Source: Gammaproteobacteria bacterium (GTDB lineage Bacteria; Pseudomonadota; Gammaproteobacteria; UBA4575). Taken from it: 64,000 bases of DNA. Location of the stretch: positions 1,797,511-1,861,510 of the forward strand of contig OZ243969.1 in the NCBI GenBank assembly GCA_965214675.1. The letters run 5' to 3'. Made by a program: the position numbers and the translations under genes. Position 1 is the stretch's first letter; every line of letters begins with the position of its first letter. Positions 30,616 through 51,089 of the stretch are shown piece after piece. Below the pieces are notes generated by a model, which saw nothing but the letters and a program-made list of their open reading frames with translations, ran no database searches and had not been told where the DNA came from.

Positions 30616-30617
30616 CC

Positions 30618-30720: not shown

Positions 30721-30776
30721 ATTAATATTTAACGATTGGAAAAAAATTAAGTTGTGAGCTGTAAGGCTTGGCAAAA

Positions 30777-30830
30777 GACAAAGGTGTCAAATTATGTTCG
30801 TGAATACGCGTCGCATAAGACACCTTTTTT
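30777..30830 (+). terminator. leader terminator overlapped by ANTAR-type hairpin (NasR/NasT antitermination element)
   Basis: GAC-AAAGGT-GTC hexaloop hairpin whose AAAGGTGTC also pairs with GACACCTTTTTT at 30819-30830. Confidence 0.7.
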
Positions 30831-30875
30831 ATCGCAGGAAACTGAACAAACTTTATATAACATCAGGAGATTAAA

Positions 30876-32258: not shown

Positions 32259-32311
32259 GTCGATTGGGGAAAAAGGTTTAACTTTTCACAAACTTATTGA
32301 GCTATAGAGAC

Positions 32312-33307
32312 ATGTCTAACAGTGCATTAATACATAAAATAAGTGCTAATTCTGAACTTTCGCTTGGTTTGGTGTCGTTTTTTTTAAACGCATTTCATCA
32401 AATCGTAATACCAATACTTGGGATATCAATTTTCTTATTGCTGTGGTCATTTGCTGCAAAAAATGTTGAGACATCATTAGGAAATTTTCCTGGTCCTGGA
32501 GAGGTTTGGAAGCAATTTGGCGGTCTTTATAGTGAGTATAAAACTGAACGAGGTAAGGAAGATGCGTTCTATCAAAGGTTAGAAGAGCGCAATGCAAAAA
32601 AATTGGCTAAGAACCCTGATTATGTACCTAAGAAACGTAAATATACAGGTAAAGAAACCTTTCTTGACCAGATCTTTACTAGTTTAAAAACCGTAATGTG
32701 TGGATTCTTGCTTGCAGCTATTATTGCAATTCCACTTGGCATCGCGATTGGATTAAGTAAAACGTTAAATACTTCAGTGAATCCAATCATTCAGATATTT
32801 AAACCTGTATCACCTTTAGCTTGGCTGCCGTTAGTTACCATGGTGGTTAGTGCATTATATGTTTCTGACAATCCAATTGTTCCAAAGTCGTTTATTAATT
32901 CGATGATTACTGTAACGCTTTGTTGTCTATGGCCAATGGCAATCAACACCTCAGTGGGAGTTGCGTCAATTAATAAAGATTTAGTAAATGTAAGTCGAGT
33001 ATTAAAACTACCTCCGCTTAGTCATGTAAGAAAAATCGTAATACCAGCATCGGTACCCAGCATTTTCACAGGTATGCGTTTATCTCTAGGAATCGCATGG
33101 ATGGTGCTTATCGCGGCAGAGATGTTGGCTCAGAATCCCGGATTAGGAAAATTTGTATGGGACGAATTCCAAAATGGAAGCTCCAACTCATTAGGAAGAA
33201 TAATGGCTGCAGTAGTTGTTATTGGATTTATTGGGTTTTTGTTAGATCGTGCAATGCTCCAGATTCAGCGTTTTGTATCTTGGGATAAAGCCTCTGCAAC
33301 ACGCTAA
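32312..33307 (+). CDS. nrtB: nitrate ABC transporter permease
   Basis: KPVSPLAWLP, FTGMRLSLGIAWMVLIAAEML, GLGKFVWDEF. Confidence 0.9.
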   Translation: MSNSALIHKISANSELSLGLVSFFLNAFHQIVIPILGISIFLLLWSFAAKNVETSLGNFPGPGEVWKQFGGLYSEYKTERGKEDAFYQRLEERNAKKLAKNPDYVPKKRKYTGKETFLDQIFTSLKTVMCGFLLAAIIAIPLGIAIGLSKTLNTSVNPIIQIFKPVSPLAWLPLVTMVVSALYVSDNPIVPKSFINSMITVTLCCLWPMAINTSVGVASINKDLVNVSRVLKLPPLSHVRKIVIPASVPSIFTGMRLSLGIAWMVLIAAEMLAQNPGLGKFVWDEFQNGSSNSLGRIMAAVVVIGFIGFLLDRAMLQIQRFVSWDKASATR

Positions 33308-33348
33308 TTATTTTTAAATTGTTAATTTCGGTAACTAGAGCCCTAGTT

Positions 33349-34203
33349 ATGAATAATGTAATTCTTGATATCAGCGATATCGATATGGAGTTTCCAACGC
33401 CTAAGGGGCCATTTACTGCGCTTAAAAAAATCGATTTAAAAGTTTCAAAAGGTGAGTTTGTGTCACTTATTGGGCATTCCGGTTGCGGTAAGTCCACAGT
33501 GTTAAACATTGTAGCTGGTCTTTATCAAGCAACACGTGGTGGTGTAGTGCTAAGTGGTAAAGAGGTCACATCACCGGGCCCTGAACGTGCAGTGGTATTT
33601 CAAAATCATTCATTGTTACCTTGGTTGACGGCCTATCAGAATGTTGAATTGGCAGTTAAACAAGTATTCAAGAAAACAAAATCAAAAATAGAGTTAAAAG
33701 AATGGATCGAGCATAACTTGAGTTTGGTGCATATGGACCATGCAATGCACAAACGTCCGGATGAGTTATCTGGTGGGATGAAACAAAGGGTGGGAATTGC
33801 AAGAGCGCTATCGATGCAGCCGGAAGTTCTGCTCATGGATGAGCCATTTGGCGCATTGGATGCACTTACGCGTGCATATATGCAAGAGACGTTAATGGAA
33901 ATTCAAAACGAACTTAAGAATACCGTAATTATGATAACGCATGATGTAGATGAGGCTGTATTGTTGTCAGATAGAATTGTAATGATGACTAATGGTCCAT
34001 CTGCAAAAATTGGTGAGATTCTTGAAGTTAACCTTGAACGCCCAAGAGATCGAATTTCTTTGGCAGAAACACCAGAGTATTCTAAGTTGCGTCACGCAGT
34101 ACTCAGTTTCTTATATGAAAAACAAAGAAAAGTAGAAAATATATCGGGCCAACAACGTAAGACACCAGCCCAAGCTACATTAAAAAATAGCGCAGTTGCC
34201 TAG
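33349..34203 (+). CDS. nrtD: nitrate ABC transporter ATP-binding protein (NrtC/D type)
   Basis: GHSGCGKST, VFQNHSLLPW, LSGGMKQR, MDEPFGALDALTR, MMTNGP. Confidence 0.88.
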   Translation: MNNVILDISDIDMEFPTPKGPFTALKKIDLKVSKGEFVSLIGHSGCGKSTVLNIVAGLYQATRGGVVLSGKEVTSPGPERAVVFQNHSLLPWLTAYQNVELAVKQVFKKTKSKIELKEWIEHNLSLVHMDHAMHKRPDELSGGMKQRVGIARALSMQPEVLLMDEPFGALDALTRAYMQETLMEIQNELKNTVIMITHDVDEAVLLSDRIVMMTNGPSAKIGEILEVNLERPRDRISLAETPEYSKLRHAVLSFLYEKQRKVENISGQQRKTPAQATLKNSAVA

Positions 34204-37147: not shown

Positions 37148-37843
37148 CTACGCAAGGGCAGGGTCTTCAGTGGTTTCTGTAAAATGTCTGTAAAACAGCG
37201 CGCAAAATACACCGAGTACAACCCAGAAAACTGCATTTGTCATCAGCGTTGCCGTAATGTACGCATGCCTCAGTTCATCAGGAGCTAAGCCCGTGTGCAC
37301 CTCTGGTTGTGGAGCACCAAATAGATGGGGTAATGCCAGCAACCCAACTCCAAATAACTTCAGATAACGTTTAGGTTGAAAGGCTATGATCCAAAAGCCT
37401 GTCGCAGTCACTACAACGGTCAATACCCACCATACCTGCCGTTGCTCAAGTCCAGCGGCCACATCTCCCGGAAGTTCTGGTGGAAGGCCCAGTGCAGGTG
37501 CTATGTTGAATGCAGCAAAACCTGCAAGTCCCCAAAGTATCCCACCCTTCCAGGTTACTTTTCCTCGCAACGCATAGCATGCGGTCAAGAGCATGCCAAA
37601 TCCTATGCCTACGAGCACGCTGTTAAGTACTGTCCAGAATGTCCTTTCAATTCCGTCTTCGGGAGCCCATTCTTCTGCCTCATGACCATGGGTAGCTTCA
37701 TGCTCTTCGCCACCGGCGGTTTCATATGTCTCAGCCTCAAGGATCATGGGGACTACTGTAAATTGCTGTACGCCCCCAAGGACTAAACCAGCCAGTCCGC
37801 CCGCCAAAAGAGCCGTCAATAAAATCGAATTAAATGCCTTCAT
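37148..37843 (-). CDS. cbtA: cobalt transporter subunit CbtA
   Basis: P.ILEAETYE, EEWAPEDGIERT, PALGLPPELPG, RQVWW, LPHLFGAP. Confidence 0.92.
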   Translation of the reverse strand: MKAFNSILLTALLAGGLAGLVLGGVQQFTVVPMILEAETYETAGGEEHEATHGHEAEEWAPEDGIERTFWTVLNSVLVGIGFGMLLTACYALRGKVTWKGGILWGLAGFAAFNIAPALGLPPELPGDVAAGLEQRQVWWVLTVVVTATGFWIIAFQPKRYLKLFGVGLLALPHLFGAPQPEVHTGLAPDELRHAYITATLMTNAVFWVVLGVFCALFYRHFTETTEDPALA

Positions 37844-37855
37844 GCATGAAATTTG

Positions 37856-38053
37856 TCAATGGCATGGGAACGCAAGGCTGTGACGCAGATCATGAGCAGC
37901 ATTGTGAACCACCTCTGGTCCTGCAAATCCAACGGCTGCAACAATCAATGTACCAATTAGAATTGCCGCTGTGACAGCCACAACCATTTCCAATGAAATG
38001 ATCCCAGCATGAGCAGATGTTGACATGTATTTGGTATTTTGACTTCTATCCAT
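37856..38053 (-). CDS. cbtB: cobalt transporter subunit CbtB
   Basis: One TM helix followed by VHNAAHDLRHSLAFPCH. Confidence 0.92.
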   Translation of the reverse strand: MDRSQNTKYMSTSAHAGIISLEMVVAVTAAILIGTLIVAAVGFAGPEVVHNAAHDLRHSLAFPCH

Positions 38054-38272
38054 TTCATTCCTCCAAGTGTTGCGCACCAATCACATCAATAGTTATATTA
38101 TAACATAACCATATTAAGGGCAACTGACACGCCGGTGCCGGTCGTTGCCTGCAGCAATGTGCTGATGCCTATATCACGGGATTTCGGGTTTCCCACAGGT
38201 TGGGCGAGTTCAGATTCGCCATCATTCTTTTAGTTATCCAGCAACAGGTTTTAATCACCAGTCAAGGCACTA

Positions 38273-38336
38273 AGTCTAAAGTAACCCGAATATCCTGCCA
38301 ACATAGACATTGCAAAATATCATAGGTAATAGTTAT
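38273..38336 (-). promoter_or_regulatory. LysR-type operator and sigma70 promoter upstream of cbtBA
   Basis: Minus strand ATAA-N7-CTAT, then 20 nt, then TTGGCA-N17-TAGACT; same layout as the scn promoter. Confidence 0.6.
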
Positions 38337-38409
38337 TAATTTTGTGGATAACATAGTTATCGAAAATACTGCCCCATAGTCTGGGAGAGTCAAGATTCTC
38401 CCTGGAGCC

Positions 38410-39156
38410 TTACTCGAGGTAATGAATTTTCGTATCAATCTGACCATGAGTCGTCATTTCAACGAACCGGTAGGCTGGTGGAAGTCGATCAGTGCGATAG
38501 GTGTGAGTATTCGGTTTGAACTGGTGACAGGTCGAAGGGGTGGATAAGAAACGTAGCTTTTCCAGTTGTTGATCTACCGTTTGATGTACGTGCCCGAACA
38601 TTACCAGCAGTTCATCAGGATAACTGCCCAGGACCTGGAGGAAGTCATTTTTGTTTTGCAGCCCAATCTCATCTAGCCACTTGCTGTTTACAGGCACCGG
38701 AGGGTGATGCAAGACAATCACATTGAACTGGTCTTCACAGGTTTGTAGGTGAGCCTGTAGTTGTCCTAGACATCGCTGGGATATTTTCCCGTAGTGTTCA
38801 TCTGCCACCCAGGTGCTGATCAGCACGAGCGAAAACTTGCCTAGTGGAATGATCCGGATCGCATCAATTGGACATTCAGGGGCAACATTTTGTAGAAGTT
38901 TCGGTGTGTCATGGTTGCCCGGCACACAGTAAACAGGCACATCATAATTGCAAATCACAGAGTCAAACTGGGAATAGCTTTCTTTTGTACCTGTCTGTGA
39001 GACATCACCTGTGAATAGCCAGAAGTCAACGTCCCGATAGTGGCTTGAACAGTGGGCAAGGACTGCCTGCAAATTTTTTTTGGTATTGATTTGGTGGAAA
39101 GTCTCATTTGCCGTGTTGAGCAAATGAGTGTCAGTGATATGGATGAATCTCAACAT
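38410..39156 (-). CDS. CpdA/Icc-like metallophosphoesterase
   Basis: ITDTH, FTGDVS, PGNHD, LHHPP, GHVHQ, STPSTC.QF. Confidence 0.85.
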   Translation of the reverse strand: MLRFIHITDTHLLNTANETFHQINTKKNLQAVLAHCSSHYRDVDFWLFTGDVSQTGTKESYSQFDSVICNYDVPVYCVPGNHDTPKLLQNVAPECPIDAIRIIPLGKFSLVLISTWVADEHYGKISQRCLGQLQAHLQTCEDQFNVIVLHHPPVPVNSKWLDEIGLQNKNDFLQVLGSYPDELLVMFGHVHQTVDQQLEKLRFLSTPSTCHQFKPNTHTYRTDRLPPAYRFVEMTTHGQIDTKIHYLE

Positions 39157-39396
39157 ATCCTGTCGATGGCTGGTTAATTCGTTGTCCATGGGCTAAGGGG
39201 AATGAAAAAAAGTGCCAGGATGCGTTGTGAGAAATTGAATTCATCACAACCTGCCGAAGATTGTTACGGCAAACAGATCGGCATACGGTTTACTTCTACG
39301 CTCGTCTTATATAGTTGCCCGCTTTGCTCGCAGCATCGTTGGATTCGAGCCCTGCTTTTATATACCCGTAGTATAGTAGAAAATGCGCAGTTACCT

Positions 39397-40398
39397 ATGA
39401 AACATGTTCGTTTCCAGCCCGGTGGACAAGAGATTACCTGCAGGGATGGAGAGACTGTTTTGTCAGCAGCGCTTCGAGAAGGCCTTGTCTTTCCTTACAG
39501 CTGCCGTAAAGGAAATTGCGGCGTATGTCAGGCCCGCCTCATATCCGGCAAAATTACCCCAAGTCCTGCACCTGATGAGGACATGGGTGCATATTCTGAC
39601 ACAGGTGAAGGGGTACTGTTGTGTCAGGCGATCCCGCTTACTGACCTGGTTATCAAGGCTCATGAACTCGAAGCACTTGCAGGTATACGAGTGCGCACAC
39701 TGTCATGCCGGGTCCAGAATCTGGAGCCGCTCACTCATAATGTCACTGCATTGACGTTAGGCCTGACGAAAGGTCGAGGTCATCTGGAATTCTGCGCAGG
39801 CCAGTATGTGGATCTCTTGCTGTGGGACAATCGTCGCCGCAGCTATTCAATTGCAAGCGCACCCCAAGAAGCTGATGTGATTGAAGTACATGTACACAGG
39901 ATCCCGGGCGGGCGATTCAGCGAGCAGGAATTTGGCACGATGAAAGCACAGGACCTGCTAGCTATCATCGGTCCTCTGGGAACTTTTTTCCTGCGCGATG
40001 ACCCACGTCCTACGATATTAATCGCTGCCGGCACGGGTTTTGCTCCCATTTCCGCTATGCTGGAAGACCTGCGAAAGCGGGGTATACAAAGGCGGATACA
40101 GTTCTACTGGGAGGTGGTCTCTCGAAAAGACCTGTACCGGCATGAGCAAATTTGCACGTGGGAACGGGAAATGGGCATCAAGTTTATACCCGTGTTGTCT
40201 GCACCTGATTCGGACTGGGAAGGGCGGTGTGGCAAGGTGCATGAAGCCGTGCTGGCTGACCATCCGGACCTGTCAGATATGCAGGTATATGCCAGTGGGT
40301 TGCCGGAAATGATTGCAGCCGTTCGCAAAACATTTCCCCAGCATGGGTTGCGCGCCGATGCACTGTACTGTGAGTCATTTGAATGCGCAGTGGATTAA
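39397..40398 (+). CDS. [2Fe-2S] ferredoxin-FAD/NAD(P)H reductase (CDP-glucoseen reductase-like)
   Basis: YSCRKGNCGVC...LLC, AGQY, RRSYSIAS, AAGTGFAP, YASG.PEMI. Confidence 0.85.
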   Translation: MKHVRFQPGGQEITCRDGETVLSAALREGLVFPYSCRKGNCGVCQARLISGKITPSPAPDEDMGAYSDTGEGVLLCQAIPLTDLVIKAHELEALAGIRVRTLSCRVQNLEPLTHNVTALTLGLTKGRGHLEFCAGQYVDLLLWDNRRRSYSIASAPQEADVIEVHVHRIPGGRFSEQEFGTMKAQDLLAIIGPLGTFFLRDDPRPTILIAAGTGFAPISAMLEDLRKRGIQRRIQFYWEVVSRKDLYRHEQICTWEREMGIKFIPVLSAPDSDWEGRCGKVHEAVLADHPDLSDMQVYASGLPEMIAAVRKTFPQHGLRADALYCESFECAVD

Positions 40399-40507
40399 CC
40401 CTGACCCGGTCTACGGTTAAAGTCGTTTTCCCATGCTGCAGTGGTATAAGAAGTCAGGCTGCTATAACCGTTCTATAATAAAAGAAATGCCAATGAGCGC
40501 GTAATAG

Positions 40508-40783
40508 ATGAACAACGTAGCACAAAAGCTGGTGGATGGATTTGTTGACGTAATCACGTCTGGCAACAGGCCATTTCGCATTTTATTGTTTGGCGGCATA
40601 TTCCTCGCGTTGCTGATCATGAATATCTTGGCGAGGCTTTTTGGAGTAAGCACAAAAATTGGCGGGGACATCGACTTGGCAAATTTTGCCCTGATTGTGA
40701 TATCGCTATTTTTGGGCTTTGGAATCTCCTACTGCATCGTACACTTTGCGCATGCCAGCAAACAAAATCGTACCGGAAGATAA
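40508..40783 (+). CDS. hypothetical two-TM membrane protein
   Basis: ORF with two hydrophobic segments; no family recognised. Confidence 0.5.
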   Translation: MNNVAQKLVDGFVDVITSGNRPFRILLFGGIFLALLIMNILARLFGVSTKIGGDIDLANFALIVISLFLGFGISYCIVHFAHASKQNRTGR

Positions 40784-40835
40784 CTGCATGAAATTGATCA
40801 GGAACCACAAAGGAAGTTCTTGGTAGATAGAAAGA

Positions 40836-41165
40836 TTAGGTAGGCAAATCCTGCCAAATCAAGGCGTACCTTGATTGGTCAACTTTGCCTCGATTGTAGT
40901 GCAAAGTGATTTCGGCTCCATGGGCCTTCAGGGTCTGGTTAATCGCACTACGGAAAATCAATTGACGAAACTGGCTATATTCGACACGGTGGAAGGCCGT
41001 GCCATGACTCTGAAGGAAGGAGTGCAATACAGGTAATGTAAAACACCAGCATTCCTGGTCCAGTTCGAAGCCAGGCTCTCTTGCCAGCTTGGGCAGCAAA
41101 TCCTGATCTTTTTGAGCGACCTGTTCAAAAAATGAAAGCAGTTCCTCTTGCAGGTCAGGCATCAA
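40836..41165 (-). CDS. hypothetical protein
   Basis: 109-aa ORF with protein-like composition filling the gap downstream of cynS. Confidence 0.55.
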   Translation of the reverse strand: MMPDLQEELLSFFEQVAQKDQDLLPKLAREPGFELDQECWCFTLPVLHSFLQSHGTAFHRVEYSQFRQLIFRSAINQTLKAHGAEITLHYNRGKVDQSRYALIWQDLPT

Positions 41166-41327
41166 GGCATACTACAGTCGATTGTCGTACCGGCACGGTC
41201 CTATCCCTTGTATCACCCCACACTCCTCATGCGCCTCCTGCATTCCCTTTGCGACGACGCATTTTCTTGTACCGGATCCGGGACACAAGGCTCGTCGGGC
41301 ATCAGGCTGTGTTTGAATACTGTACGA

Positions 41328-41768
41328 CTACCATGAACTGTATTTCAGGAATTTACCATTCATCGTGATCACGACACGATCTCCTTTCGGGTTCTCTTCC
41401 TTATCAATGTCCATGGAAAAATCGATGGCACTCATGATGCCATCGCCAAACTTCTCACCAATAATCTGTTTGATGGTGTAGCCATAGACACCGACAATTT
41501 CGTAAAACCTGTAGATGACAGGGTCTTGCGGCACAATTTTATCCCAGGCCTTGTTAGGAAATTCCTGCAAAGTGGCACACACATCATCGTCTAGTTCAAG
41601 CACCTCGCATAAGCTTTTGGCAGCATCTTCAGGCATGCTGTTCAGCCCATAACTTGCAGAAGCCACCCAGACCTCACCCATACCCATCTTGCTGGCAATT
41701 GCTTCCCAGGTGAGTCCTTTTGCCTTTTTCGAGGCCATAATTTGATCGGTCATTTCTTCTTTTGTCAT
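41328..41768 (-). CDS. cynS: cyanase
   Basis: DPVIYRFYEI, EKFGDGIMSAIDF, GDRVVITMNGKFL.Y..W. Confidence 0.96.
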   Translation of the reverse strand: MTKEEMTDQIMASKKAKGLTWEAIASKMGMGEVWVASASYGLNSMPEDAAKSLCEVLELDDDVCATLQEFPNKAWDKIVPQDPVIYRFYEIVGVYGYTIKQIIGEKFGDGIMSAIDFSMDIDKEENPKGDRVVITMNGKFLKYSSW

Positions 41769-41805
41769 TATTATTTACTCCGTATACGCTACATAGTTAT
41801 ATTTC

Positions 41806-41934
41806 AGCAAAAAACGGGCCAACTCTGCGAACCAAGAGAGTTCATTGAAATTTTGTCATATCTGGGTCATTAAAGAAGACGTCGTGACTGCATTATTGCA
41901 CTGAAATGGTGCATTTTTGCACTAAAATCTTGCG
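41806..41934 (-). promoter_or_regulatory. sigma54 promoter and NtrC sites for cynS
   Basis: Minus strand TTGGCCCGTTTTTTGCT (41806-41822); TGCAC-N7-GTGCA at 41897-41913; second site TGCACTAAAATCTTGCG at 41918-41934. Confidence 0.8.
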
Positions 41935-42003
41935 GCTGGCTGTTTATAAGGACTCGTGAATATGAAACTTACAGACACGCGTTATTTCGCACCCAATCCG
42001 GAA

Positions 42004-42936
42004 TTACTGCATGCTTTTCGTCTGAAGCATCGCTGAAGACCATTCCGAGGCAAGCTCCAGGAAGGCGAGGCATGCGGGACTTTTGTACCCGCTTTTGTGC
42101 CAGATCATGCTGACCGTGTGATGAGGAAGTTCTGGCATGACTTCAATAGGATGGAGTCCCCTTTGTGTGTTGATGATGGTACTGGGCAGGACTGTGGCCA
42201 GTGAACCCAGTTCAACCATCTCAATGATCACCGTCAGTGAATTGGTCTCAATCACATTTCGTGGTTCAATACCGTAGTCATGGCAATAGCGATCAATATG
42301 ATGTCGAAGGGCAAAGTCGGTATTCAGCTGTACCAGGGACTCCTTGCCAAAGTCCTGGGCATTGAGATGTTTTTTTCGTTTGGCGCGGGGATGCGCATCG
42401 CCGACGGCAAGATAAAGGGCCTCCTCGAACAAGGTAAAAGTTTCCGTATTACTGGAGGCTTCCTCGGAATCGGAGGGCTTGCTGAATGCGATTCCGATGT
42501 CAATTCGGGCCTCTGATATTGCAGGCTCAATATCATCTTGGGGCATATCCAGTGTGCTCAGCGTGATGCCAGGATACAGATGGTGATAGCGGGCCAGTAA
42601 GGAGCACGTCAGGTAGTCTGTTATTGGCGTCCACCCCAGTCGCAGTGAGCCACGACTGAGATCTTGAACATCCTGGATCGCCCGGGTACCGATGTTCAAT
42701 TCTCCCCATGCACGGCGTGCATGCTGCAGAAAGATTTTCCCGGCATCGGTCAGTTGTACAGAGCGGCCCGACCGGTCCAGCAGGGGTGACTGCAGGTAAT
42801 CTTCCAGTTGTTTGATTTGCTGGGATAACGTGGGCTGTGAAACATGCAAGGCCTCTGCCGCACGCGTATAGCTGCCATATTCTGCTATGGCAATCAGGTA
42901 CTGGAGAGAACGTGGGAAGATGTCCCGTCGGTCCAT
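42004..42936 (-). CDS. cynR: CynR-like LysR transcriptional regulator
   Basis: HTH TRAAEALHVSQPTLSQQIKQLE, DLSRGSLRLG.TP, DIGIAF, FALR..ID.Y. Confidence 0.85.
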   Translation of the reverse strand: MDRRDIFPRSLQYLIAIAEYGSYTRAAEALHVSQPTLSQQIKQLEDYLQSPLLDRSGRSVQLTDAGKIFLQHARRAWGELNIGTRAIQDVQDLSRGSLRLGWTPITDYLTCSLLARYHHLYPGITLSTLDMPQDDIEPAISEARIDIGIAFSKPSDSEEASSNTETFTLFEEALYLAVGDAHPRAKRKKHLNAQDFGKESLVQLNTDFALRHHIDRYCHDYGIEPRNVIETNSLTVIIEMVELGSLATVLPSTIINTQRGLHPIEVMPELPHHTVSMIWHKSGYKSPACLAFLELASEWSSAMLQTKSMQ

Positions 42937-42999
42937 AGTTAAACCCTATAAGTTTGATAAATATAAAGTCTTGGATTAATAACATAACTCCATTAGACT
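42935..42999 (+). promoter_or_regulatory. LysR operator (T-N11-A) and sigma70 promoter of scn operon
   Basis: ATAG-TTAAACC-CTAT (42935-42949) overlapping the cynR start codon, then 21 nt, then TTGGAT-N17-TAGACT. Confidence 0.72.
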
Positions 43000-43129
43000 T
43001 GTCATTACCTCACATTAAGGCCCTATAAAATTAGTATATAAGCGAATTCTAAAGTACACCGAATCACCCAACATGCAAGGCAACTTGTTTGACATCCGGA
43101 TATGCGAAAAATAAGAGGAGTTCAAAACT

Positions 43130-43561
43130 ATGCCATCTGATACCAGACAGAAAGTAATGCGGCACATTGACATAGTCGGTCAATTGCAACCAGCTTTACA
43201 TCAGCCGCAGCATGCCCCCCTTCCCACTGCTATTGATAACGCTCATTTCAGAGCCTACATGCGTACTTCACACGATGTAGGTGGAGAGCCCGATGTGTCA
43301 ATTGAGTGGCATGAAAAAGAAGAAGAACAGTGGGAATTAAACACCTACGTGACGTGCGAGTGTTTGGCATGGCGCGGTGTATGGAATGCCGAGGAAAGAC
43401 GACGTCGGCAGAATGTCGACTTGGGTCAAACACAATACCTGGGTTTGCCTTATTACGGGCGTTGGCTGCTATCTGCTGCAAGGATCATGGTGGATAAGCA
43501 GCATATTACTCTCACAGAATTAATGAATAAGATCGATGAGGTGAAAAAGCGACATGAGTAG
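43130..43561 (+). CDS. scnB: thiocyanate hydrolase beta subunit
   Basis: QPALHQ, HDVGGE, HEKEEE.WELNT..TCECLAWRGVW.AEERRR.QN.D.GQT.YLG.PYYGRWLL, as in Thiobacillus thioparus ScnB (recalled). Confidence 0.93.
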   Translation: MPSDTRQKVMRHIDIVGQLQPALHQPQHAPLPTAIDNAHFRAYMRTSHDVGGEPDVSIEWHEKEEEQWELNTYVTCECLAWRGVWNAEERRRRQNVDLGQTQYLGLPYYGRWLLSAARIMVDKQHITLTELMNKIDEVKKRHE

Positions 43562-43907
43562 AGGTCATCATGCTGAAAAAGCGACCGGCAAGGGCGATCC
43601 ACAATGCTTTGTAGGGGAAGCTCCGCCGCCAAAGTTTAAAGTCGGGGATCGCGTAAGGATCCGGGATTTGCCAGACATTTTCTATACCCGATGCCAAGTG
43701 TATACGCGGGGTGCCGAAGGGGTGGTCGCGGTTGTCACACATGAAAGTCCTGCCCCTGAGGATGAGGCCTGGGATAATGTGGATGCACCCGAGTGGTTCT
43801 ACATTGTGCGCTTCAAGCAGAAGGAGCTTTGGTCGGAATATCCTGATGTTTACGCGAATGACACTTTGCAGACAGAATTTTCAGAACGTTGGCTAGAGCC
43901 TGTTTAA
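43554..43907 (+). CDS. scnA: thiocyanate hydrolase alpha subunit
   Basis: ATG.GDPQCF, KF.VGDRVRI.DLPD.FYTR, YTRGA, ESPA.EDEA, ANDTL.TE. Confidence 0.93.
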   Translation: MSRGHHAEKATGKGDPQCFVGEAPPPKFKVGDRVRIRDLPDIFYTRCQVYTRGAEGVVAVVTHESPAPEDEAWDNVDAPEWFYIVRFKQKELWSEYPDVYANDTLQTEFSERWLEPV

Positions 43908-43954
43908 GCTTGGCTGACTGTATCGATAAAAAGAATTGAATAGAGAGGAACGAA

Positions 43955-44647
43955 ATGGCAGAGAAACATAAGCCCGCACCTATGGTGGATGAAGTAAGTG
44001 ACTTTGAGGTTCTGGAAGTTGCCGTTCGAGAGTTGGCTATTGAAAAGGGTCTTTTTAGCGCTGAAGATCATCGGCGTTTTGCAGAATTTGCACATAGCAT
44101 AGGCCCTTTACCTGCAGCGCGACTCGTGGCGAAGTCCTGGCTGGACCCTGAGTTTAAAAAACTGGCTCTGGAAGACGGGTTTACCGCTAGCAAGGAAGTT
44201 GGAATCGACTGGCTGAATCCGACAGGATTTGGGACACCCAGTGATTATTGTGACCTGCGTGTCCTTGAAAACACGCCGTCGGTGCATCATGTGGTCGTGT
44301 GCACATTATGTTCATGCTATCCCAGACCGATCCTGGGCCATTCTCCTGAGTGGTACAGGACTCCAAATTATCGTCGCAGACTGGTTCGCTGGCCACGCCA
44401 GGTGTTGTCAGAGTTTGGTTTGCAAATTCCAGCAGATGTTGAGGTCAGGGTTGAGGACTCGAATCAGAAATGCCGTTTCATGGTCATGCCTATGCGGCCT
44501 GAGGGCACTGAGGACTGGAGTGAAGATCAGCTGGCTGAAATTGTTACACGTGATTGCATGCTGGGAGTTGCATTACCACATCCGGAGCGCAAGGCTGATG
44601 ACAAGCGGCCCGTACATAAGGCAGCCAACCCGGTTCACGGGCATTGA
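43955..44647 (+). CDS. scnC: thiocyanate hydrolase gamma subunit (Co-binding)
   Basis: HKPAPMV, FGTPSDYC, VVCTLCSCYPRPILG (Co-type metal motif), NYRRRLVRWPRQVL. Confidence 0.95.
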   Translation: MAEKHKPAPMVDEVSDFEVLEVAVRELAIEKGLFSAEDHRRFAEFAHSIGPLPAARLVAKSWLDPEFKKLALEDGFTASKEVGIDWLNPTGFGTPSDYCDLRVLENTPSVHHVVVCTLCSCYPRPILGHSPEWYRTPNYRRRLVRWPRQVLSEFGLQIPADVEVRVEDSNQKCRFMVMPMRPEGTEDWSEDQLAEIVTRDCMLGVALPHPERKADDKRPVHKAANPVHGH

Positions 44648-44653
44648 TGCAGC

Positions 44654-45049
44654 GTGATGGACGACGCCACAGAAAAAAATGCCCCAGGAGCTGATCCGGC
44701 GAGCAATATGCCGGAATTTTCTTCTGTGTCTTTGCTGGAGAAGATTCGCACGCAGGGAAAAGCCTGGAAGGACCTGGCAAATCAATACGGTGTGGACAAC
44801 CCGGATCCTCCATGGAAGATAAATTTGGATTCAACCTGTGAGGCACTTTCTGCTGAGCAGTGTGCGCTCCCGGTACTGGAGCGCAGAAATGAAGAGGATA
44901 CGCTCTCCGAGAGCATGTACAAAGACGTTCCTTATCCGGAACGACAACTGCTCGCCCTGGCTCATTCCATGATTCAGCGCGGCTTGATAGATGAGGATGA
45001 ACTTGCGCTTCGCATGAAGTATGTCAGCAAGCGACTAAACAGCGTCTGA
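44654..45049 (+). CDS. thiocyanate hydrolase activator (P15K-like)
   Basis: Immediately after scnC; PPWK..LD..C, RR..ED.L...Y...PYPE.QLLALAHS...RGLIDE.EL..RM, similar to NHase beta-N-like accessory proteins. Confidence 0.75.
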   Translation: MMDDATEKNAPGADPASNMPEFSSVSLLEKIRTQGKAWKDLANQYGVDNPDPPWKINLDSTCEALSAEQCALPVLERRNEEDTLSESMYKDVPYPERQLLALAHSMIQRGLIDEDELALRMKYVSKRLNSV

Positions 45050-45125
45050 CGGGGCAATCACAGGTAGCAGGGCATCAGGTAGAGAGCATGACTGAAAGTC
45101 AACGATAACAAGGACAACATACTCT

Positions 45126-45488
45126 ATGGCAAATATATTCATGAAGTCTTCATGGGGGAGTGATGATCCCACACGGGCAGCTATGGTGTTTGGGCATGCA
45201 AATGCCTTGGCAAGTGCGGGACATGAGGTACGGATATTCCTACTCGGGGAAGCAGTCTGCCTGGCCCGGCCGGTAGTGCGGGAAAATATGATTCCCGTGG
45301 GGTGGCCGTCTGTTGCGACTCAATGGGATGAGGCAATTGGGAATGGGGTCAGGATTGAATGCTGTGGTGCATGCTCCAGAGCCAGAGGACTAAGTGAAGA
45401 CGACATGGCAAAAGCCGGTGCACAACCCGGCAATCCTGATACCTTTGTGGAAAGCGTAGAATGGTCCGATAAGATCATTGCCGAATGA
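45126..45488 (+). CDS. DsrE-family protein
   Basis: GSDDPTRA, GHEVRIFLLGEAV, CCGAC..ARG, WSDKII. Confidence 0.82.
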   Translation: MANIFMKSSWGSDDPTRAAMVFGHANALASAGHEVRIFLLGEAVCLARPVVRENMIPVGWPSVATQWDEAIGNGVRIECCGACSRARGLSEDDMAKAGAQPGNPDTFVESVEWSDKIIAE

Positions 45489-45613
45489 ACATGAGACAGG
45501 ATCGAACAAGTTTGGCTTGGTTCTTGCTTGGGACACTATGCAGGGAATGCATGTAGAGAGATGAAGCAGCTCGTAATATTAGGTATAGACCGACACAGAG
45601 GTAGGAAGCATAT

Positions 45614-46444
45614 ATGGAAAAACGCAAAGGCGTACACATTAATATCAAGGATCTTACCCACCGCTATACCTCTAAGAGCCCCATTACCTTTGAGAAAGTC
45701 AACATTGAGGCCGACCCGGGAGAGGCACTGGTCATCATTGGAAGGTCCGGTTGCGGCAAGTCAACCCTTTTGCATATTTTGGCAGGCTTGCTGGAAAAAT
45801 CGAGCGGGATTGTCCGTCTCGACGAGAAAGATGTTACGGAGCCTTCATCCCATTGGATAATGATGTTTCAGGCGCCTCATCTTTTCCCGTGGATGACGGT
45901 GGAACAGAATGTAGGTACTGGCTTGCGGTTTGCCCATTGGCCAGAAAAAAAAATGAAAAAACGCATTGCCGAGGTGATTAATCTGGTGAGTCTTGACGAG
46001 TACGCAAAAAACAATACGCAAGATCTGTCGGGTGGTCAGCAGCAGCGTGTTGCGCTCGCACGCTCCCTGGTAATGGAGCCTGACCTGCTCCTGCTTGACG
46101 AGCCTTTTTCTGCACTAGATGCTTTTACTCGCGCGACGCTGCAAAAAGATGTCAGGGCCATTTCAAAGCAACTGGGGTTCAACTTGGTAATGGTGACTCA
46201 CGATATAGATGAAGCGGTGATCATGGCTGATCGCGCTCTGGTTATGGCAGGTTCGCCTGGCAAAATTGTCCATGACTTCAAGGTGGATCTTGATGATCCG
46301 CGTGAAAGACAGGATCCAAAGGTACAGGCGATGCGTGTGAGCTTAATGGAAATTTTCCATCATGCTGCAGGCGTTTCTGTGAACGATTCCAACATGGAAG
46401 GAGATGATGCTAACCAATCGGACATAGAGTTGGTTGGTAACTAA
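45614..46444 (+). CDS. NitT/TauT-type ABC ATP-binding protein
   Basis: GRSGCGKST, LFPWMTV, LSGGQQQR, LDEPFSALD. Confidence 0.92.
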   Translation: MEKRKGVHINIKDLTHRYTSKSPITFEKVNIEADPGEALVIIGRSGCGKSTLLHILAGLLEKSSGIVRLDEKDVTEPSSHWIMMFQAPHLFPWMTVEQNVGTGLRFAHWPEKKMKKRIAEVINLVSLDEYAKNNTQDLSGGQQQRVALARSLVMEPDLLLLDEPFSALDAFTRATLQKDVRAISKQLGFNLVMVTHDIDEAVIMADRALVMAGSPGKIVHDFKVDLDDPRERQDPKVQAMRVSLMEIFHHAAGVSVNDSNMEGDDANQSDIELVGN

Positions 46445-46510
46445 AAGAATGTCTGAAAGTGCACTTCAGACCCTATTAACTACGAGAGTAACGATTTGAG
46501 GAATTCCGAC

Positions 46511-47803
46511 ATGAAGAAAATTTACGAGAAACATGGCGATGGGGTACAGATTGATGATCCCAAACTCGCCATAGAGTATGACCCGCTGTTTAAGGGGGCG
46601 TTAGGTACCGGTATCAACCGGCGCGAATTGCTGCAGGTAGGAGGACTTGCTGCATTGGGTGGCGGGGCAGGGGCCTTGCCCATGCCAAGCTTTGCCAAGA
46701 AAAAATGGGACCCGGTAATCAAGATCGGCTACATCCCCATCACGGATGCGGCAGCTCTGCTGATTGCGCATGATCAGGGCTATTTCAAGGACGAAGGCAT
46801 TGATTCTGTGAAGCCAACACTGATCCGTGGTTGGTCGCCCTTGGTAGAAGCCTTTGCAGCTCATCGCTTCAACCTGACCCATATGCTGATCCCGATTCCA
46901 GTGTGGATGCGTTATAACAACAAGTATCCGATCAAGATCACTGCTTGGGACCACACCAACGGTTCGGCGGTATTGGTAGGTAAGAAGAGCGGTATCAATG
47001 AACCCAAGGACTTTGGCGGTAAACAGTTTGCTGTGCCGTACTGGTACTCGATCCACAACATTGTTTCGCAAAGAATCATGAAAGCGGCTGGTATCAAGCC
47101 AGTGATCAGACCACAGTCTGCGAAGCTGGCAGATGATGAGTGCAACTTCCTGGTGTTGGCACCGCCGTCCATGCCGCCTGCACTGGCTGCGGGAACGATT
47201 GATGGCTACTGTGTGGCTGAGCCGTTTAACGCCCTGGGCGAGCTTAAAGCGGGTGGAAAGGTACTACGCTTTACAGGTGATGCATGGAAAGGACACCCTT
47301 GCTGCGTTGTAGTCATGCATGAAGAGGATGCTATGGACCCCGATCGTGCTGCATGGGCACAGGGAGTACATAATGCGGTAGTCAGAGCCCAGATTCATCT
47401 GGCTGAAAACAGGGAAGCCATGTCGGAACTGCTCTCGCGTGACGGTAAAGGCTATTTGCCTGTCCCGAAAGAGGTTGTGAAGCGAGCAATGATGTTTTAT
47501 GACCCTGCGTACTACAAAAATCCTCAGGCAATCAAGCATCCTGAATGGGATCAGAACCGTATTGATTTTCAGGCATGGCCATACCGGTCAGCGACAGAGC
47601 TCGTCGTTAGCGATCTGAAAGAAACGGTAGTTACGGGGGATGCGCGGTTCCTGGACACGCTCACGCCTCAGCATGTAGCCAATGACCTTGTCAATTATGA
47701 CTACGTGAAGAACGCATTGGAGTCACATCCCAAGTGGAGAAACGATGCGAGCGTGCCGCAAGAAGGTGATCCGTATATCCGTTCGGAGGTGTTTGTACTT
47801 TGA
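46511..47803 (+). CDS. CmpA/NrtA-like ABC substrate-binding protein, Tat signal
   Basis: NRRELL twin-Arg, KIGYIPITDA, HTNGSA, AVPYWYSIHN, VAEPFNA, HPCCV. Confidence 0.88.
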   Translation: MKKIYEKHGDGVQIDDPKLAIEYDPLFKGALGTGINRRELLQVGGLAALGGGAGALPMPSFAKKKWDPVIKIGYIPITDAAALLIAHDQGYFKDEGIDSVKPTLIRGWSPLVEAFAAHRFNLTHMLIPIPVWMRYNNKYPIKITAWDHTNGSAVLVGKKSGINEPKDFGGKQFAVPYWYSIHNIVSQRIMKAAGIKPVIRPQSAKLADDECNFLVLAPPSMPPALAAGTIDGYCVAEPFNALGELKAGGKVLRFTGDAWKGHPCCVVVMHEEDAMDPDRAAWAQGVHNAVVRAQIHLAENREAMSELLSRDGKGYLPVPKEVVKRAMMFYDPAYYKNPQAIKHPEWDQNRIDFQAWPYRSATELVVSDLKETVVTGDARFLDTLTPQHVANDLVNYDYVKNALESHPKWRNDASVPQEGDPYIRSEVFVL

Positions 47804-48657
47804 GTAACGGAAAAGTAGATGTAGCTGATGTAGATGCAGGCACAAGTACGGCTGCATCTTCAAAAGCTAGGTCAAATACTTCGACTGCAAAGTCGATGGG
47901 TAAGAGCCTGTTCAATTGGGCAGCTGGCTTGGGGATCCTGTTTGTATTTTGGTGGTTTGGAGGCTATCTCATTGAGATCAATCCTGACACCACGAACTTC
48001 AAGGACTTTGGGCCAATTCCAACGTTCAAGGCATTCCCGGAGCTTTTTGCGATCGGCAAGATACAGGCAGCAGTCACAACAAGTGGTTATCGCTTGGGTG
48101 CCGGTCTGCTTATAGCCATTGTCGCGGGTGTACCCATTGGGATTTTGTTGGGTCGTAGTACGATTTTCCGTGAACTCAGTAATTCGCCGTTTCAGTTGAT
48201 CCGTATGATTAGCCCGCTTTCATGGGAGCCAATCGCGGTCATCGTATTTGCCACCTGGAATGGAGCAATCGTATTTCTGATTGCTGTAGCCGCCATCTGG
48301 CCAGTCGTGTTTGCTACGGCAGCAGGCTTGGCCAAGGTGGACCCGGCCTGGTTCAAGGTTGCCCGCAACCTAGGGGCAAAGCCATGGCATATGGTGACGG
48401 AAATTATCCTGCCCGCAATTTTGTTTGATATCCTGACCGGTGTTCGACTGGCATTGGGTGTCGGATGGATTGTACTGGTGCCGGCAGAATTTCTTGGAGT
48501 CACTTCAGGGCTTGGCTACTCCATAGCAGATGCCAGGGAAACACTCTCCTATGACCAACTGACTGCGATGGTGCTCACTATTGGTGTAATGGGCTACATA
48601 CTTGACAGCTCCCTTGCGATGCTGATCAAACGCTACAGTTGGCACCATGCAAGGTGA
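47800..48657 (+). CDS. NitT/TauT-type ABC permease
   Basis: RMISPLSW.P, VARNLGA, VPAEFLGVTSGLGY. Confidence 0.9.
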   Translation: MSNGKVDVADVDAGTSTAASSKARSNTSTAKSMGKSLFNWAAGLGILFVFWWFGGYLIEINPDTTNFKDFGPIPTFKAFPELFAIGKIQAAVTTSGYRLGAGLLIAIVAGVPIGILLGRSTIFRELSNSPFQLIRMISPLSWEPIAVIVFATWNGAIVFLIAVAAIWPVVFATAAGLAKVDPAWFKVARNLGAKPWHMVTEIILPAILFDILTGVRLALGVGWIVLVPAEFLGVTSGLGYSIADARETLSYDQLTAMVLTIGVMGYILDSSLAMLIKRYSWHHAR

Positions 48658-48720
48658 GCGAATACTGGATAAATGAAAATTAATTAGTGCTTTAAACTAA
48701 ATCGAGGACAAGAGATAACT

Positions 48721-48915
48721 ATGCAAAATCAGATAGCAACCAGTTCAAAACTGCGTGATGTAACGATATCAAAGGCTACGTGGCGGCCACTACAGATTGC
48801 CGCCGCCTTTTTGTTGGGGGCCGTAATCTTGTATGGTGTGGGATTTGCAAATTCAGCTGCAGTGCACAATGCAGCCCATGATGTGCGCCACACCCAAGTA
48901 TTCCCTTGCCACTAG
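48721..48915 (+). CDS. cbtB: second CbtB-family cobalt transporter subunit
   Basis: One TM followed by VHNAAHDVRHTQVFPCH. Confidence 0.9.
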   Translation: MQNQIATSSKLRDVTISKATWRPLQIAAAFLLGAVILYGVGFANSAAVHNAAHDVRHTQVFPCH

Positions 48916-48960
48916 GCATTTGGGAAACATTACAGGAAACTACTGAGAATTCCTCTCGAT

Positions 48961-49007
48961 GGCTTGGCTAATGGTCAGGATGACCATTGGCCAAGCCTGT
49001 ATTTTTG
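48961..49007 (+). terminator. probable terminator of scn operon
   Basis: GGCTTGGCTAATGGTCA-GGA-TGACCATTGGCCAAGCC 17-bp stem followed by TGTATTTTT. Confidence 0.7.
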
Positions 49008-49220
49008 GCTGGCTTGTAATTTTGAATTCAGGCTGCCCTCTCAGGCGCTATAACTTGCCTTACCTGTAGAGCATACCTGTCTACACGGCTAAAATTTATC
49101 CTCCTCTGGAGAATTACTGACTCAATTAGGTAGAGATCATCCCGCCAATCATGAACGGTGCAGGTTAGCTTACTCGAGTTGAACTGGATTCGACGAGTAG
49201 AGAGAGTAGTAGTTGTGCCC

Positions 49221-49250
49221 AAAAAAAGAGGGGTGCAATCTGCACCCCTC
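49221..49250 (-). terminator. rho-independent terminator of porin gene
   Basis: Minus strand GAGGGGTGCA-GAT-TGCACCCCTC-TTTTTT. Confidence 0.85.
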
Positions 49251-49293
49251 GGGTTTTGTGATATGACTTGCCTTTTGGCTAAAAGAGCCCAGG

Positions 49294-50889
49294 TTATTTG
49301 AAGCGGTACTGAAGCAATGTCCAGAACTTCTTGGTATCCGAGGAAAATCCGTCCTCACTTTCGAAGTCTGTATATTTAATTGCAAACAGGAATTTACCCA
49401 TGAAGGGCTTGCCCCACAGTACGCCCCATTCATCTCCATAATCAGAAATGCGATTGCTTCCTGACATGTACGATCTGTCTGTACTGTAGTCGTGATAATT
49501 AATGACGAGTTTGTTTTTGCCAATTTTGTGACCTAAAAGGCCCAGAACTGTCAGGGTCACGCTGGTGTCTTCAATGCCACCAAGAGGGGTTGCTGAACCA
49601 CCAGGGGCGGCAACAAACTTATCAGCCCAGCCGTTGAAGGCGTGCACTGTAGCTAGAGGGGTTTGAATAGCGTTGTTACCGTTACTCTCCAAGACCTCGT
49701 AACCTACTCTTATCTGATAGGTAGGTTCACCAATGGGCATGAAGCCGAGGTTGTCGACCCGTGTGCCGCCAAACCTGATTCCGAACTCAATGTTGTAATA
49801 GTCATTATCATCCAGTTTCTGTCCAGTCTGCAGATTCATACCTGCATCGTCAGTTGGGTCTTGGTTCGCCCACTCTAATTCACTCTGAATATCCAATGAA
49901 TCACTAACCTCGTGTCTACCTTTGAAACGAACACCGTAGGTCTCCGAGTCGAAACTCACTGGGCCTATAAAAGGAGGTGCCATTCCTGTGCCTTCGGGGA
50001 AAGGCGTACGGGAATTATCATCAAAATCTAGCAAGTAACCATAAGCAACCAGTTTGCCATTGAACTGCGGGAGCTTGTAAGAGATGTTGATCAGGTGAGA
50101 GTCATCCATTTCCCATTCATCGAAAATGGAATCTTCACCAAAGAGCCGCTTCACCTTGTCAATATAGGTATAAGAGATCCCAAGTTTTCCAAGCGTCTTG
50201 TCGACTCTGATCGCATCAAACGAAACGTTGTTTCCTCGCCAGATTACATCTCCAACCCATCGATGGTTGTCATAGATAACAGTTTGACGCCCTAATTTGA
50301 ATGAAAGAGGACCATCACAAGGTCCAGGTGCACTGGGGCAGCCACCCGTTGGGGCGCGCCATCCAATATAGGCTTCATTGATTTCTTCAAAATCATTGTC
50401 AGGAATAATAGCATGGCCCTCAATATAACGATTCATTGCTGGCAGATTACCCCGTATAGGAGCCGGCAATGCCATCGGCCCACCTGGAGGGAAGTTTGGG
50501 GGTACGCTAAAATCTCCATCAAGGTTTAGCGCTCTGTCCGAGTTCAGGACTTCGTTCATCTCCCCTTCAATACGGGCATAAAAACCATGGAAGCGACCTG
50601 TGGTAAAGCCCAGCGCATTCCGTAAGACAACTGCATCAGCCTTGTCAGCATTTTCCATAGGGTGACCACTTGGAAAATCATCCTCCACATCTTCAAATCG
50701 TATGCGGGACCAGAAATCAAATCGGCCATTGACCAATGCTTCACCGAGATTCGTATGGTCCGGTGTCATTTTGTGATGAGGGGTATGATGGGTGTTGGGG
50801 ACATCAGGTAAGCCCACCGCTCCGACACCCTGCGCCAGTACCAGAATGGCTGCAGCCATAAGGCATGGCAGAGGTTTAAAGTTGACCAT
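49294..50889 (-). CDS. alginate-export (AlgE-like) outer-membrane porin
   Basis: RBS AGGAG, signal peptide, R.RFE.V, KLGRQ....DNHRWVG...WR.N..SFDA, TPLAT.HAFNGWADKF, C-terminal QYRFK. Confidence 0.8.
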   Translation of the reverse strand: MVNFKPLPCLMAAAILVLAQGVGAVGLPDVPNTHHTPHHKMTPDHTNLGEALVNGRFDFWSRIRFEDVEDDFPSGHPMENADKADAVVLRNALGFTTGRFHGFYARIEGEMNEVLNSDRALNLDGDFSVPPNFPPGGPMALPAPIRGNLPAMNRYIEGHAIIPDNDFEEINEAYIGWRAPTGGCPSAPGPCDGPLSFKLGRQTVIYDNHRWVGDVIWRGNNVSFDAIRVDKTLGKLGISYTYIDKVKRLFGEDSIFDEWEMDDSHLINISYKLPQFNGKLVAYGYLLDFDDNSRTPFPEGTGMAPPFIGPVSFDSETYGVRFKGRHEVSDSLDIQSELEWANQDPTDDAGMNLQTGQKLDDNDYYNIEFGIRFGGTRVDNLGFMPIGEPTYQIRVGYEVLESNGNNAIQTPLATVHAFNGWADKFVAAPGGSATPLGGIEDTSVTLTVLGLLGHKIGKNKLVINYHDYSTDRSYMSGSNRISDYGDEWGVLWGKPFMGKFLFAIKYTDFESEDGFSSDTKKFWTLLQYRFK

Positions 50890-51041
50890 GGTTTTCTCCT
50901 CCCTTGCAAGGGTTTTAGCCAGATTGTCCTTGAGTAACCTAGCCATAAACAGATCCAGAATTCTGTGTTAGATGCTTATTTTAGACTTACACCGGTAACA
51001 TAAGCTTAATAATCTATCTATAGTAAATAATTGCTCTCCCG

Positions 51042-51089
51042 TCCAAGACTTTCTCATTATTGAAGCCATAGACTATAACTATGGACCGA
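51042..51089 (-). promoter_or_regulatory. LysR operator/promoter of porin gene, paralogous to scn promoter
   Basis: ATAG-N7-CTAT at 51068-51082; 37/48 nt ungapped identity, counted by hand, to 42928-42975. Confidence 0.75.

Follow-up and report, generated by a model that had tools for sequence, protein, structure and literature searches.

The window analysed here is a stretch of 64,000 nucleotides (nt; positions 1,797,511 to 1,861,510 of contig OZ243969.1, assembly GCA_965214675.1) from a Gammaproteobacteria genome that consists of a single contig of 1,868,863 bp with 54.7% G+C. Between 37 and 53 kb, the window carries a gene cluster for thiocyanate hydrolase, the key enzyme of the carbonyl-sulfide pathway for degrading thiocyanate, which is used in the treatment of mining and coking waste water. 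A gene for a LysR-type regulator of the CynR family is transcribed divergently from the scn operon, and three operator-like sites lie upstream of, and are oriented toward, genes of the cluster, namely scnB, the presumed cobalt importer genes cbtBA, and a gene for a predicted outer-membrane channel, hereafter the porin (Table 1). The ScnC product passes the TIGR03887 equivalog threshold (396.7 bits versus 291.45) and the split β-type subunits are encoded upstream of it. The genes from scnB to the second cbtB-like open reading frame (ORF) presumably form one transcript. The adjacent cbtB and cbtA genes pass the CbtAB thresholds, the function of the family being itself described as "probable" by Pfam and "proposed" by NCBIfam. 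The start of the porin gene was reassigned to the ATG at 50892.

Table 1. Genes and candidate regulatory sites of the scn cluster (positions within the window; IR, inverted repeat; ABC, ATP-binding cassette)
Feature	Position	Strand	Basis or detail
cbtA	37148-37843	-	Pfam CbtA, 179.7 bits vs threshold 30.7
cbtB	37856-38053	-	Pfam CbtB, 63.2 bits vs threshold 27
cbtBA promoter, TTGGCA (38301-38296), N17, TAGACT (38278-38273)	38273-38301	-	9/12 sigma-70 match
cbtBA IR1-like dyad ATAA-N7-CTAT, ATAACTATTACCTAT	38322-38336	-	Scan
Metallophosphoesterase	38410-39189	-	Pfam
Ferredoxin-reductase-like gene	39202-40398	+	Pfam
hyp109, conserved 109-aa ORF	40836-41165	-	Without Pfam or NCBIfam family
cynS	41328-41768	-	Pfam
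CynR-family LysR-type regulator, 310 aa	42004-42936	-	Pfam, NCBIfam
scnB IR1, perfect dyad ATAG-N7-CTAT (T-N11-A), ATAGTTAAACCCTAT	42935-42949	+	Sequence; scan
scnB IR2-like block, ATAA-N7-GTCT	42957-42971	+	Adjoins -35; centre ~-42
Inferred scn promoter, TTGGAT (42971-42976), N17, TAGACT (42994-42999)	42971-42999	+	Weak sigma-70 match, <9/12
scn operon	43130-48915	+	Pfam, NCBIfam, gene order kept in related loci
scnB, NHase_beta_N, 143 aa	43130-43561	+	Pfam
scnA, NHase_beta_C, 117 aa	43554-43907	+	Pfam
scnC, NHase_alpha, 230 aa	43955-44647	+	Pfam; TIGR03887
P15K-like accessory gene	44654-45049	+	Weak nitrile-hydratase-beta match
dsrE-like gene	45126-45488	+	Pfam
NitT/TauT-type ABC transporter	45614-48657	+	Pfam
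ABC ATPase	45614-46444	+	Pfam
NMT1-type binding protein	46496-47803	+	Pfam
ABC permease	47800-48657	+	Pfam
Second cbtB-like ORF, 64 aa	48721-48915	+	TIGR02459 CbtB, 71.4 bits vs cut-off 64.4
Outer-membrane channel (porin), 532 aa	49294-50892	-	Predicted fold
Inferred porin promoter, TTGGAC (51046-51041), N18, TATAGA (51022-51017)	51017-51046	-	Alignment
Porin IR2-like block, ATAATGAGAAAGTCT	51046-51060	-	Matrix, alignment
Porin IR1, ATAGTTATAGTCTAT, inside extended palindrome CCATAG-N7-CTATGG	51068-51082	-	Matrix, scan

Upstream of scnB, the first dyad (IR1) overlaps the start codon of the regulator gene (CAT at 42934-42936), and the centre of the IR2-like block lies 22 bp past that of IR1. 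With the start sites placed 7 nt 3' of the -10 hexamers (~43006 on the plus strand for scnB, ~51010 on the minus strand for the porin), the scnB IR1 is centred at about -64. The perfect IR1 dyad ATAG-N7-CTAT frequently extends to CCATAG-N7-CTATGG. The general form of IR2 is ATmr-N7-GTCT, an imperfect dyad whose final base is the first T of the -35 hexamer. The motif AAAGTCTTGGAC is common to the porin IR2-like block, the scnB site and the porin sites of relatives, and the dyad is separated from TTGG by 21 nt at both scnB and the porin. A first-pass annotation, made from the sequence alone, had described a dyad followed by a TTGG-type -35 at these three places. Its layouts of the scnB site (21-nt gap, TTGGAT-N17-TAGACT) and of the cbtBA site (20-nt gap, TTGGCA-N17-TAGACT) proved exact. 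For the porin, the TTGGAC was correct and the -10, which it had called less clear, can now be placed as TATAGA after 18 nt; in an alignment of 18 porin upstream regions with the window, this hexamer is conserved as TATAGA or TATATT. At the scn promoter, TTGGAy and a -10-like hexamer are likewise conserved in relatives. The scnB and porin promoters are both below the threshold of our sigma-70 consensus scan (9/12 matches), the porin promoter being unlisted by it, which fits activator-dependent promoters.

The strict pattern ATAR-N7-CTAT-N20/21-TTGG matches exactly three places on both strands of the whole genome, and these are the scnB, cbtBA and porin sites, as the first-pass annotation had it. 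In 100 shuffles preserving the composition of 50-nt blocks, the mean number of matches was 0.42 (standard deviation 0.68) and a single shuffle reached three. All three matches fall within the 2.5% of 200-nt segments having a G+C fraction below 0.42, and these segments contain 7 of the 45 dyads of the genome. Since the pattern was defined post hoc, an independent matrix and conservation across genomes provide a stronger test.

The comparison set was composed of the best 80 of 581 scnC loci confirmed by tblastn with ScnC as query (L001-L080, 1.44 Mb), in which L039 and L044 share an assembly, as do L072 and L078. The closest ScnC relatives are uncultured Gammaproteobacteria with genomes of 1.6-2.1 Mb. 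A weight matrix was trained on 42 unique scnB sites of loci L012-L080, the window's own clade being left out. When the source genome was scanned with it, the scnB site came first (49.7 bits) and the porin site second (29.8 bits), with a background mean of -74; the third-best full-matrix match has just 9.1 bits, and no further regulon members were found in this genome. Ranking first and second under a matrix derived from distant species, the scnB and porin sites truly belong to a motif family that was defined outside this genome. The matrix consensus is cCATAGccAAntCCTATgGnnnTnATCngAAtaAAGTCTTGGACAA, its IR2 part reading ATCn-N7-GTCT. Because the selection pattern of the training sites fixes ATAR, YTAT and TTGR, the information in the matrix is partly circular, which weakens this line of evidence; its independent signal comes from the other conserved columns (the CC ahead of TAT, the AT and AA of the second block, and the GTC and AC that flank TTGG on its 5' and 3' sides) and from targets other than scnB. 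The DNA between the dyad and the second block is variable, most of the conservation falling in these two blocks.

Across the other scn loci, the pattern with a spacing of 21 is present upstream of scnB in 55 of the 78 loci with sufficient upstream DNA. The matrix gave 166 matches of at least 12 bits in the 80 loci, versus 0-2 for each of 20 column-permuted matrices. Each match was assigned to the longest ORF beginning 15-450 nt downstream, and ORFs were labelled by tblastn with the window proteins and, for 47 unlabelled ORFs of at least 80 aa, by Pfam. A site stands 5' of scnB in 76 of the 80 loci (81 sites, 45 of them training sites); the exceptions are L053, L071, L072 and L077, and in at least L053 and L072 the region is missing. 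For the porin family of the window, a site is present upstream in 18 of the 20 loci holding a homologue, and in the remaining two the upstream DNA of the porin falls beyond the locus end. OprD-family and OprB-family porins are preceded by a site in one locus each. Among cobalt and nickel importers, CbiM follows a site in 24 loci and cbtBA does so in 8, with NicO, HupE/UreJ and a CbiN-domain ORF represented by one locus each. A full site stands directly 5' of a Co/Ni importer in 35/80 loci, and cbtA closes the scn operon in 18/80; the union of the two amounts to 51/80, several of the loci outside it being short contigs. Other downstream genes are an Hdr-like gene with CCG and Fer4 domains (10 loci), cynS (5 loci) and a PhzF-like gene (2), the remaining sites being single cases or sites before small unknown ORFs. 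That one operator stands 5' of importers from four unrelated families and of porins from three points to function and hardly to shared descent of the DNA, and it is the principal reason for regarding entry, hydrolysis and cobalt supply as co-regulated. These data indicate that cobalt supply is a function of the regulon across genomes.

Five other complete genomes were scanned for matches with up to two mismatches. They gave two or three sites each in the scn neighbourhood, with two exceptions, both in genome G003. One of these, a 1-mismatch match at position 830352 outside the scn region, was judged a chance match because it lies inside a 464-aa ORF and has no GTC block. The other is a 2-mismatch match at 1300106-1300145, about 118 kb from the scn sites.

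The regulator has the domain composition of a LysR-type protein (Pfam HTH_1, 85.7 bits; LysR_substrate, 124.8 bits). It scores 348.3 bits against the NCBIfam CynR equivalog NF008416, above the cut-off of 277, while the next-best NCBIfam family, CidR, gives 176.5 bits versus a cut-off of 415. An alignment of 292 aa with E. coli CynR shows 43% identity, the helix-turn-helix segment being nearly identical, and among PDB entries the protein is matched best by the effector domain of CynR (2hxr/3hfu, E=3.4e-40). By these scores, the regulator belongs to the CynR family, in agreement with the CynR-like LysR protein named in the first-pass annotation. Its orthologues (73 copies in 72 loci) are associated with a divergent site located -10 to +60 nt from their start in 68 of the 73 cases. 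In 58 of the 73 copies, IR1 starts exactly 1 nt inside the start codon of the regulator (CAT followed by AG).

The operator can be compared with that of CynR in Gammaproteobacteria, described in the available part of PMC5002191 as three 15-bp repeats ATAA-n7-TTAT at -66, -44 and -34 from the cynTSX start, with CynR acting by autorepression and cyanate-dependent activation. In both systems the regulator gene is divergent from the main target, the repeats are 15-bp elements of the 4-N7-4 type and the first of them is near -65. The second repeat lies here 22 bp downstream at the -35, which is the IR1-IR2 spacing of CynR as given in that part of PMC5002191, and the geometry likewise suggests autoregulation, as is also expected from the scn IR1 covering the start codon of the regulator. 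Judged by sequence, the operator geometry is that of CynR, with the half-site changed by one base (ATAG/CTAT versus ATAA/TTAT). There are further differences from E. coli: IR1 overlaps the regulator start codon here, whereas the E. coli repeat is ~10 nt beyond it; the targets are the scn genes, a NitT/TauT-type ABC transporter, the channel and cobalt importers instead of cynTSX; and there are several operators per genome, cynS apparently not being a target in this clade. The E. coli 8-mer CCTATAAG beside the cynR start differs in register from the published repeat and was not counted as evidence.

A different control seems to apply to cynS. The sequence TGGCCC-N5-TTGC occurs at 41807-41821 on the minus strand, 53 nt 5' of the cynS ATG, and a palindrome TGCACC-N5-AGTGCA at 41897-41913 on the same strand, 145 nt 5' of this ATG. 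These elements look like a sigma-54 promoter of the -24/-12 type and an NtrC site, respectively. Like the window, 9 of the 10 nearest relatives carry the -24/-12 element 5' of cynS, versus 1 of 41 other cynS rows. Genes for both RpoN (232.9 bits) and NtrC (692.6 bits versus a cut-off of 558.6) are present in the genome. It seems, from these elements, that the cyanase of the window's clade is under nitrogen control and not under that of a CynR-type operator.

These features could be combined in the following mechanism. The regulator would bind the two-part operator (IR1 and IR2) as a dimer of dimers and, when loaded with an inducer, for which thiocyanate and cyanate are the candidates, would recruit RNA polymerase to the weak TTGGAy promoters. 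In this way it would switch on the scnBAC-P15K-like-dsrE-like-ABC-cbtB-like operon and the outer-membrane channel gene, and the same complex would autoregulate the divergent regulator gene. The cbtBA genes would carry a reduced site, made up of the IR1 dyad and a stronger -35/-10 with no IR2. We consider it likely that the CynR-family protein controls the scn operon and the channel through the two-part operator, with autoregulation, and that cbtBA is at most modulated. Some observations speak against this assignment: inspection of the consensus by eye revealed no equivalent of IR3 of the E. coli operator; no CynR-type site accompanies the classical CynR target in this genome, cynS, which is encoded 3' of the regulator gene in the same orientation; and contigs from RNA libraries (4 runs, 3 studies) provide only scattered pieces of 151-425 nt with 90-99% likeness, too sparse for transcription starts, strand, level or co-induction. 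The first-pass annotation had proposed that the regulator coordinates outer-membrane entry, ABC uptake, hydrolysis and cobalt supply. Phylogenetic footprinting gives strong support to this as regards the scn operon, the porin and, across genomes, cobalt supply, the case for cbtBA of this particular genome being only moderate. The name thiocyanate regulon is deduced from the target genes.

The status of cbtBA is the point at which the strongest alternative arises. According to it, the regulon comprises two units only, scn and the porin, and the dyad upstream of cbtBA is decayed or coincidental, these genes being transcribed by sigma-70 RNA polymerase either constitutively or in response to, for example, cobalt. 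Several observations favour this explanation and, at the same time, weaken the case for cbtBA as a third target. The dyad-to-TTGG gap is 20 nt here versus 21 at the two other sites, no IR2-like block follows the dyad and the full matrix misses the site, either as built or minus one spacer column. With a reduced model (IR1 plus -35, three spacings) it scores 14.0 bits and ranks about eighth among the distinct places of the genome, with five unrelated places above it (23.3-14.3 bits). The single operator layout proposed initially for all three units thus holds for scnB and the porin, which have the full operator and the top two matrix matches, and not for cbtBA. In addition, full sites are absent from the cbtBA upstream regions of all 10 nearest relatives, 3 of which also lack the strict dyad. 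The cbtBA promoter, with its 9/12 sigma-70 match, may not need an activator. The most likely cbtB start is the ATG at 38053, according to a GGAGGA Shine-Dalgarno sequence and the alignment; the resulting leader of 213 nt (38054-38266, minus strand) is, in the window and in L005, ~150 nt longer than in L001-L004, L006 and L010. On the other hand, the site has an exact ATAA-N7-CTAT 20 nt from TTGG, with a -10 hexamer TAGACT and a 17-nt spacer identical to those of scnB. Seven of the 10 nearest relatives retain the strict dyad while the DNA between dyad and -35 changes, and TTGGC and TTTAGACT do not vary among the 9 sequences of the window's subclade that could be aligned. In more distant genomes, a full site precedes stand-alone cbtBA in 8 of the 20 loci where cbtA is not part of the scn operon. 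Moreover, no riboswitch or other known RNA element was found that could take over control. The window gave no Rfam match at the gathering score, and five related loci gave none; in a search of 37950-38420 at E up to 10, the lone row was a chance snoRNA match (13.1 bits); and the leader folds no better than shuffles (z = -1.16). A terminator-like hairpin 3' of the gene upstream of cbtBA suggests that these genes are a separate unit. Weighing this evidence, we lean towards the cbtBA dyad being a functional site; basal expression of cbtBA is probably high, and the regulator would at most modulate it. We see a regulon restricted to scn and the porin as quite possible but not as the answer we would choose.

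The nature of the inducer gives rise to another explanation, namely that the regulator is an ordinary cyanate-sensing CynR and that the scn genes, the porin and the cobalt importers are drawn into a response to cyanate or for nitrogen scavenging, thiocyanate itself not being sensed. The score above the CynR equivalog cut-off is consistent with this, as are the position of cynS in the cluster, its own full site in 5 loci and, in the 24 CbiM loci, sites located ~1-1.5 kb upstream of cynS. It is rather unlikely nonetheless, since the most consistent targets are the thiocyanate hydrolase operon and its cobalt supply, cynS is uncoupled from the site in the window's clade, and an identity of only 43% to E. 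coli CynR leaves room for an altered effector. The products of thiocyanate hydrolase are also carbonyl sulfide and ammonia, and not cyanate, as stated in the available part of PMC5328954. Finally, the shared sequence could be a duplicated promoter cassette, or be bound by a factor other than the adjacent LysR protein. Indeed, a long stretch, AAAGTCTTGGA, is identical between the scnB and porin sites. The conserved positions nevertheless cluster in a symmetric dyad and in a second block set at a fixed helical spacing, with variable DNA between them, the site follows the regulator start codon to the nucleotide in the 58 copies mentioned above, and the architecture is that of the published CynR operator, in so far as the accessible part of PMC5002191 describes it. 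We regard this last explanation as highly improbable, and control by the CynR-family regulator is retained as the preferred one.

In the searchable full-text literature, no LysR or CynR regulator and no operator was found linked to scn genes. For Thiobacillus thioparus and Thioalkalivibrio thiocyanodenitrificans, Berben et al. 2017 (PMC5328954) describe scnABC followed by a hypothetical gene and a NitT/TauT ABC transporter. Genes for cyanase and for cobalt uptake are located in the vicinity, and that article remarks on "different cobalt uptake systems" in the two species. The available part of that article treats the gene neighbourhood only and names no regulator, operator, promoter or porin. 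The available parts of PMC6382920, PMC11171427, PMC5458468 and PMC6504805 are likewise restricted to scn gene neighbourhoods, PMC5458468 citing Kantor et al. 2015 for a "conserved operon". Compared with the two described clusters, what is new in the present analysis is a cis-element linking the units in 76/80 loci. Collectively, an apparently undescribed CynR-type regulon, with multi-operon targets around thiocyanate hydrolase, is well supported by these sequence comparisons. In Rhodococcus rhodochrous J1, the gene of the cobalt transporter NhlF is located inside a cluster for a Co-type nitrile hydratase. Such clusters resemble the present one in that non-corrin cobalt supply is genetically coupled to an enzyme of the nitrile hydratase family; the coupling there is by operon membership, whereas here it is partly by a shared operator before separate units and non-homologous importers.

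With a conserved operator and a named candidate regulator, the induction of thiocyanate hydrolase becomes directly testable, and the pair is a candidate part for a thiocyanate or cyanate biosensor. The operator standing before four unrelated Co/Ni importer families would mean a regulon organised around metal-cofactor supply to one enzyme. A wider scenario, on which we are almost evenly divided with a slight tilt to the negative, is that a thiocyanate-sensing CynR paralogue is the scn switch in Gamma- and Betaproteobacteria. Its operator would have repeatedly captured importers (CbtAB, CbiM, NicO, HupE) and different channels, thus co-inducing apo-enzyme synthesis, metal import and substrate entry; in the small-genome clade of the window, cyanase would have been handed over to NtrC/sigma-54 and the cbtBA operator would be simplifying.

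Functions can also be predicted from the regulon, both for a family of outer-membrane channels that is so far uncharacterised and for the Hdr-like gene. The channel has no Pfam or NCBIfam family over threshold, Alginate_exp being sub-threshold in Pfam, and an N-terminal signal peptide was judged by eye. An AlphaFold2 model built from a 15-sequence alignment (predicted local distance difference test 63.6, predicted template-modelling (TM) score 0.68) has medium confidence and is all-β with long strands. Foldseek aligns this model to the substrate-specific 18-strand channels OccK9, OpdQ, OpdL, chitoporin and AlgE in the PDB (E ~1e-13 to 1e-12, target TM 0.56-0.72). The model thus supports the product of 49294-50892 being an outer-membrane channel, putatively of the 18-strand OprD/Occ/AlgE type. 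The Hdr-like gene, absent from the window, encodes a heterodisulfide-reductase-like product of 432-490 aa with CCG and 4Fe-4S dicluster domains. It follows a full operator in L020, L021, L022, L031, L056, L069, L070, L074, L075 and L076, whose titles include Thiodiazotropha, Thiobacillus and Thiobacillaceae, and its product is a possible sulfur-handling member of the regulon. L070 and L076, both labelled Thiobacillus, carry full sites 5' of scnB, of CbiM and of this gene.

In the scn operon, the dsrE-like gene sits between the P15K-like gene and the ABC transporter, and its tblastn matches are limited to the wider clade of the window. The permease gene is followed by a cbtB-like ORF in 32/80 loci and by cbtA in 18/80, so that the ancestral scn operon probably terminated in cbtBA. 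The hyp109 ORF adjoins the regulator gene or cynS in many loci, and L017 has a 25-bit site 5' of it; Pfam and NCBIfam give no family for it, and the Atlas yields only "hypothetical protein" clusters from Pseudomonadota. Outside the cluster, a low-G+C stretch is present at 24001-34000 of the window (0.38-0.43, versus ~0.49 in its flanks and 0.547 for the genome). It begins near a tRNA gene (24616-24688) and may be an acquired island.

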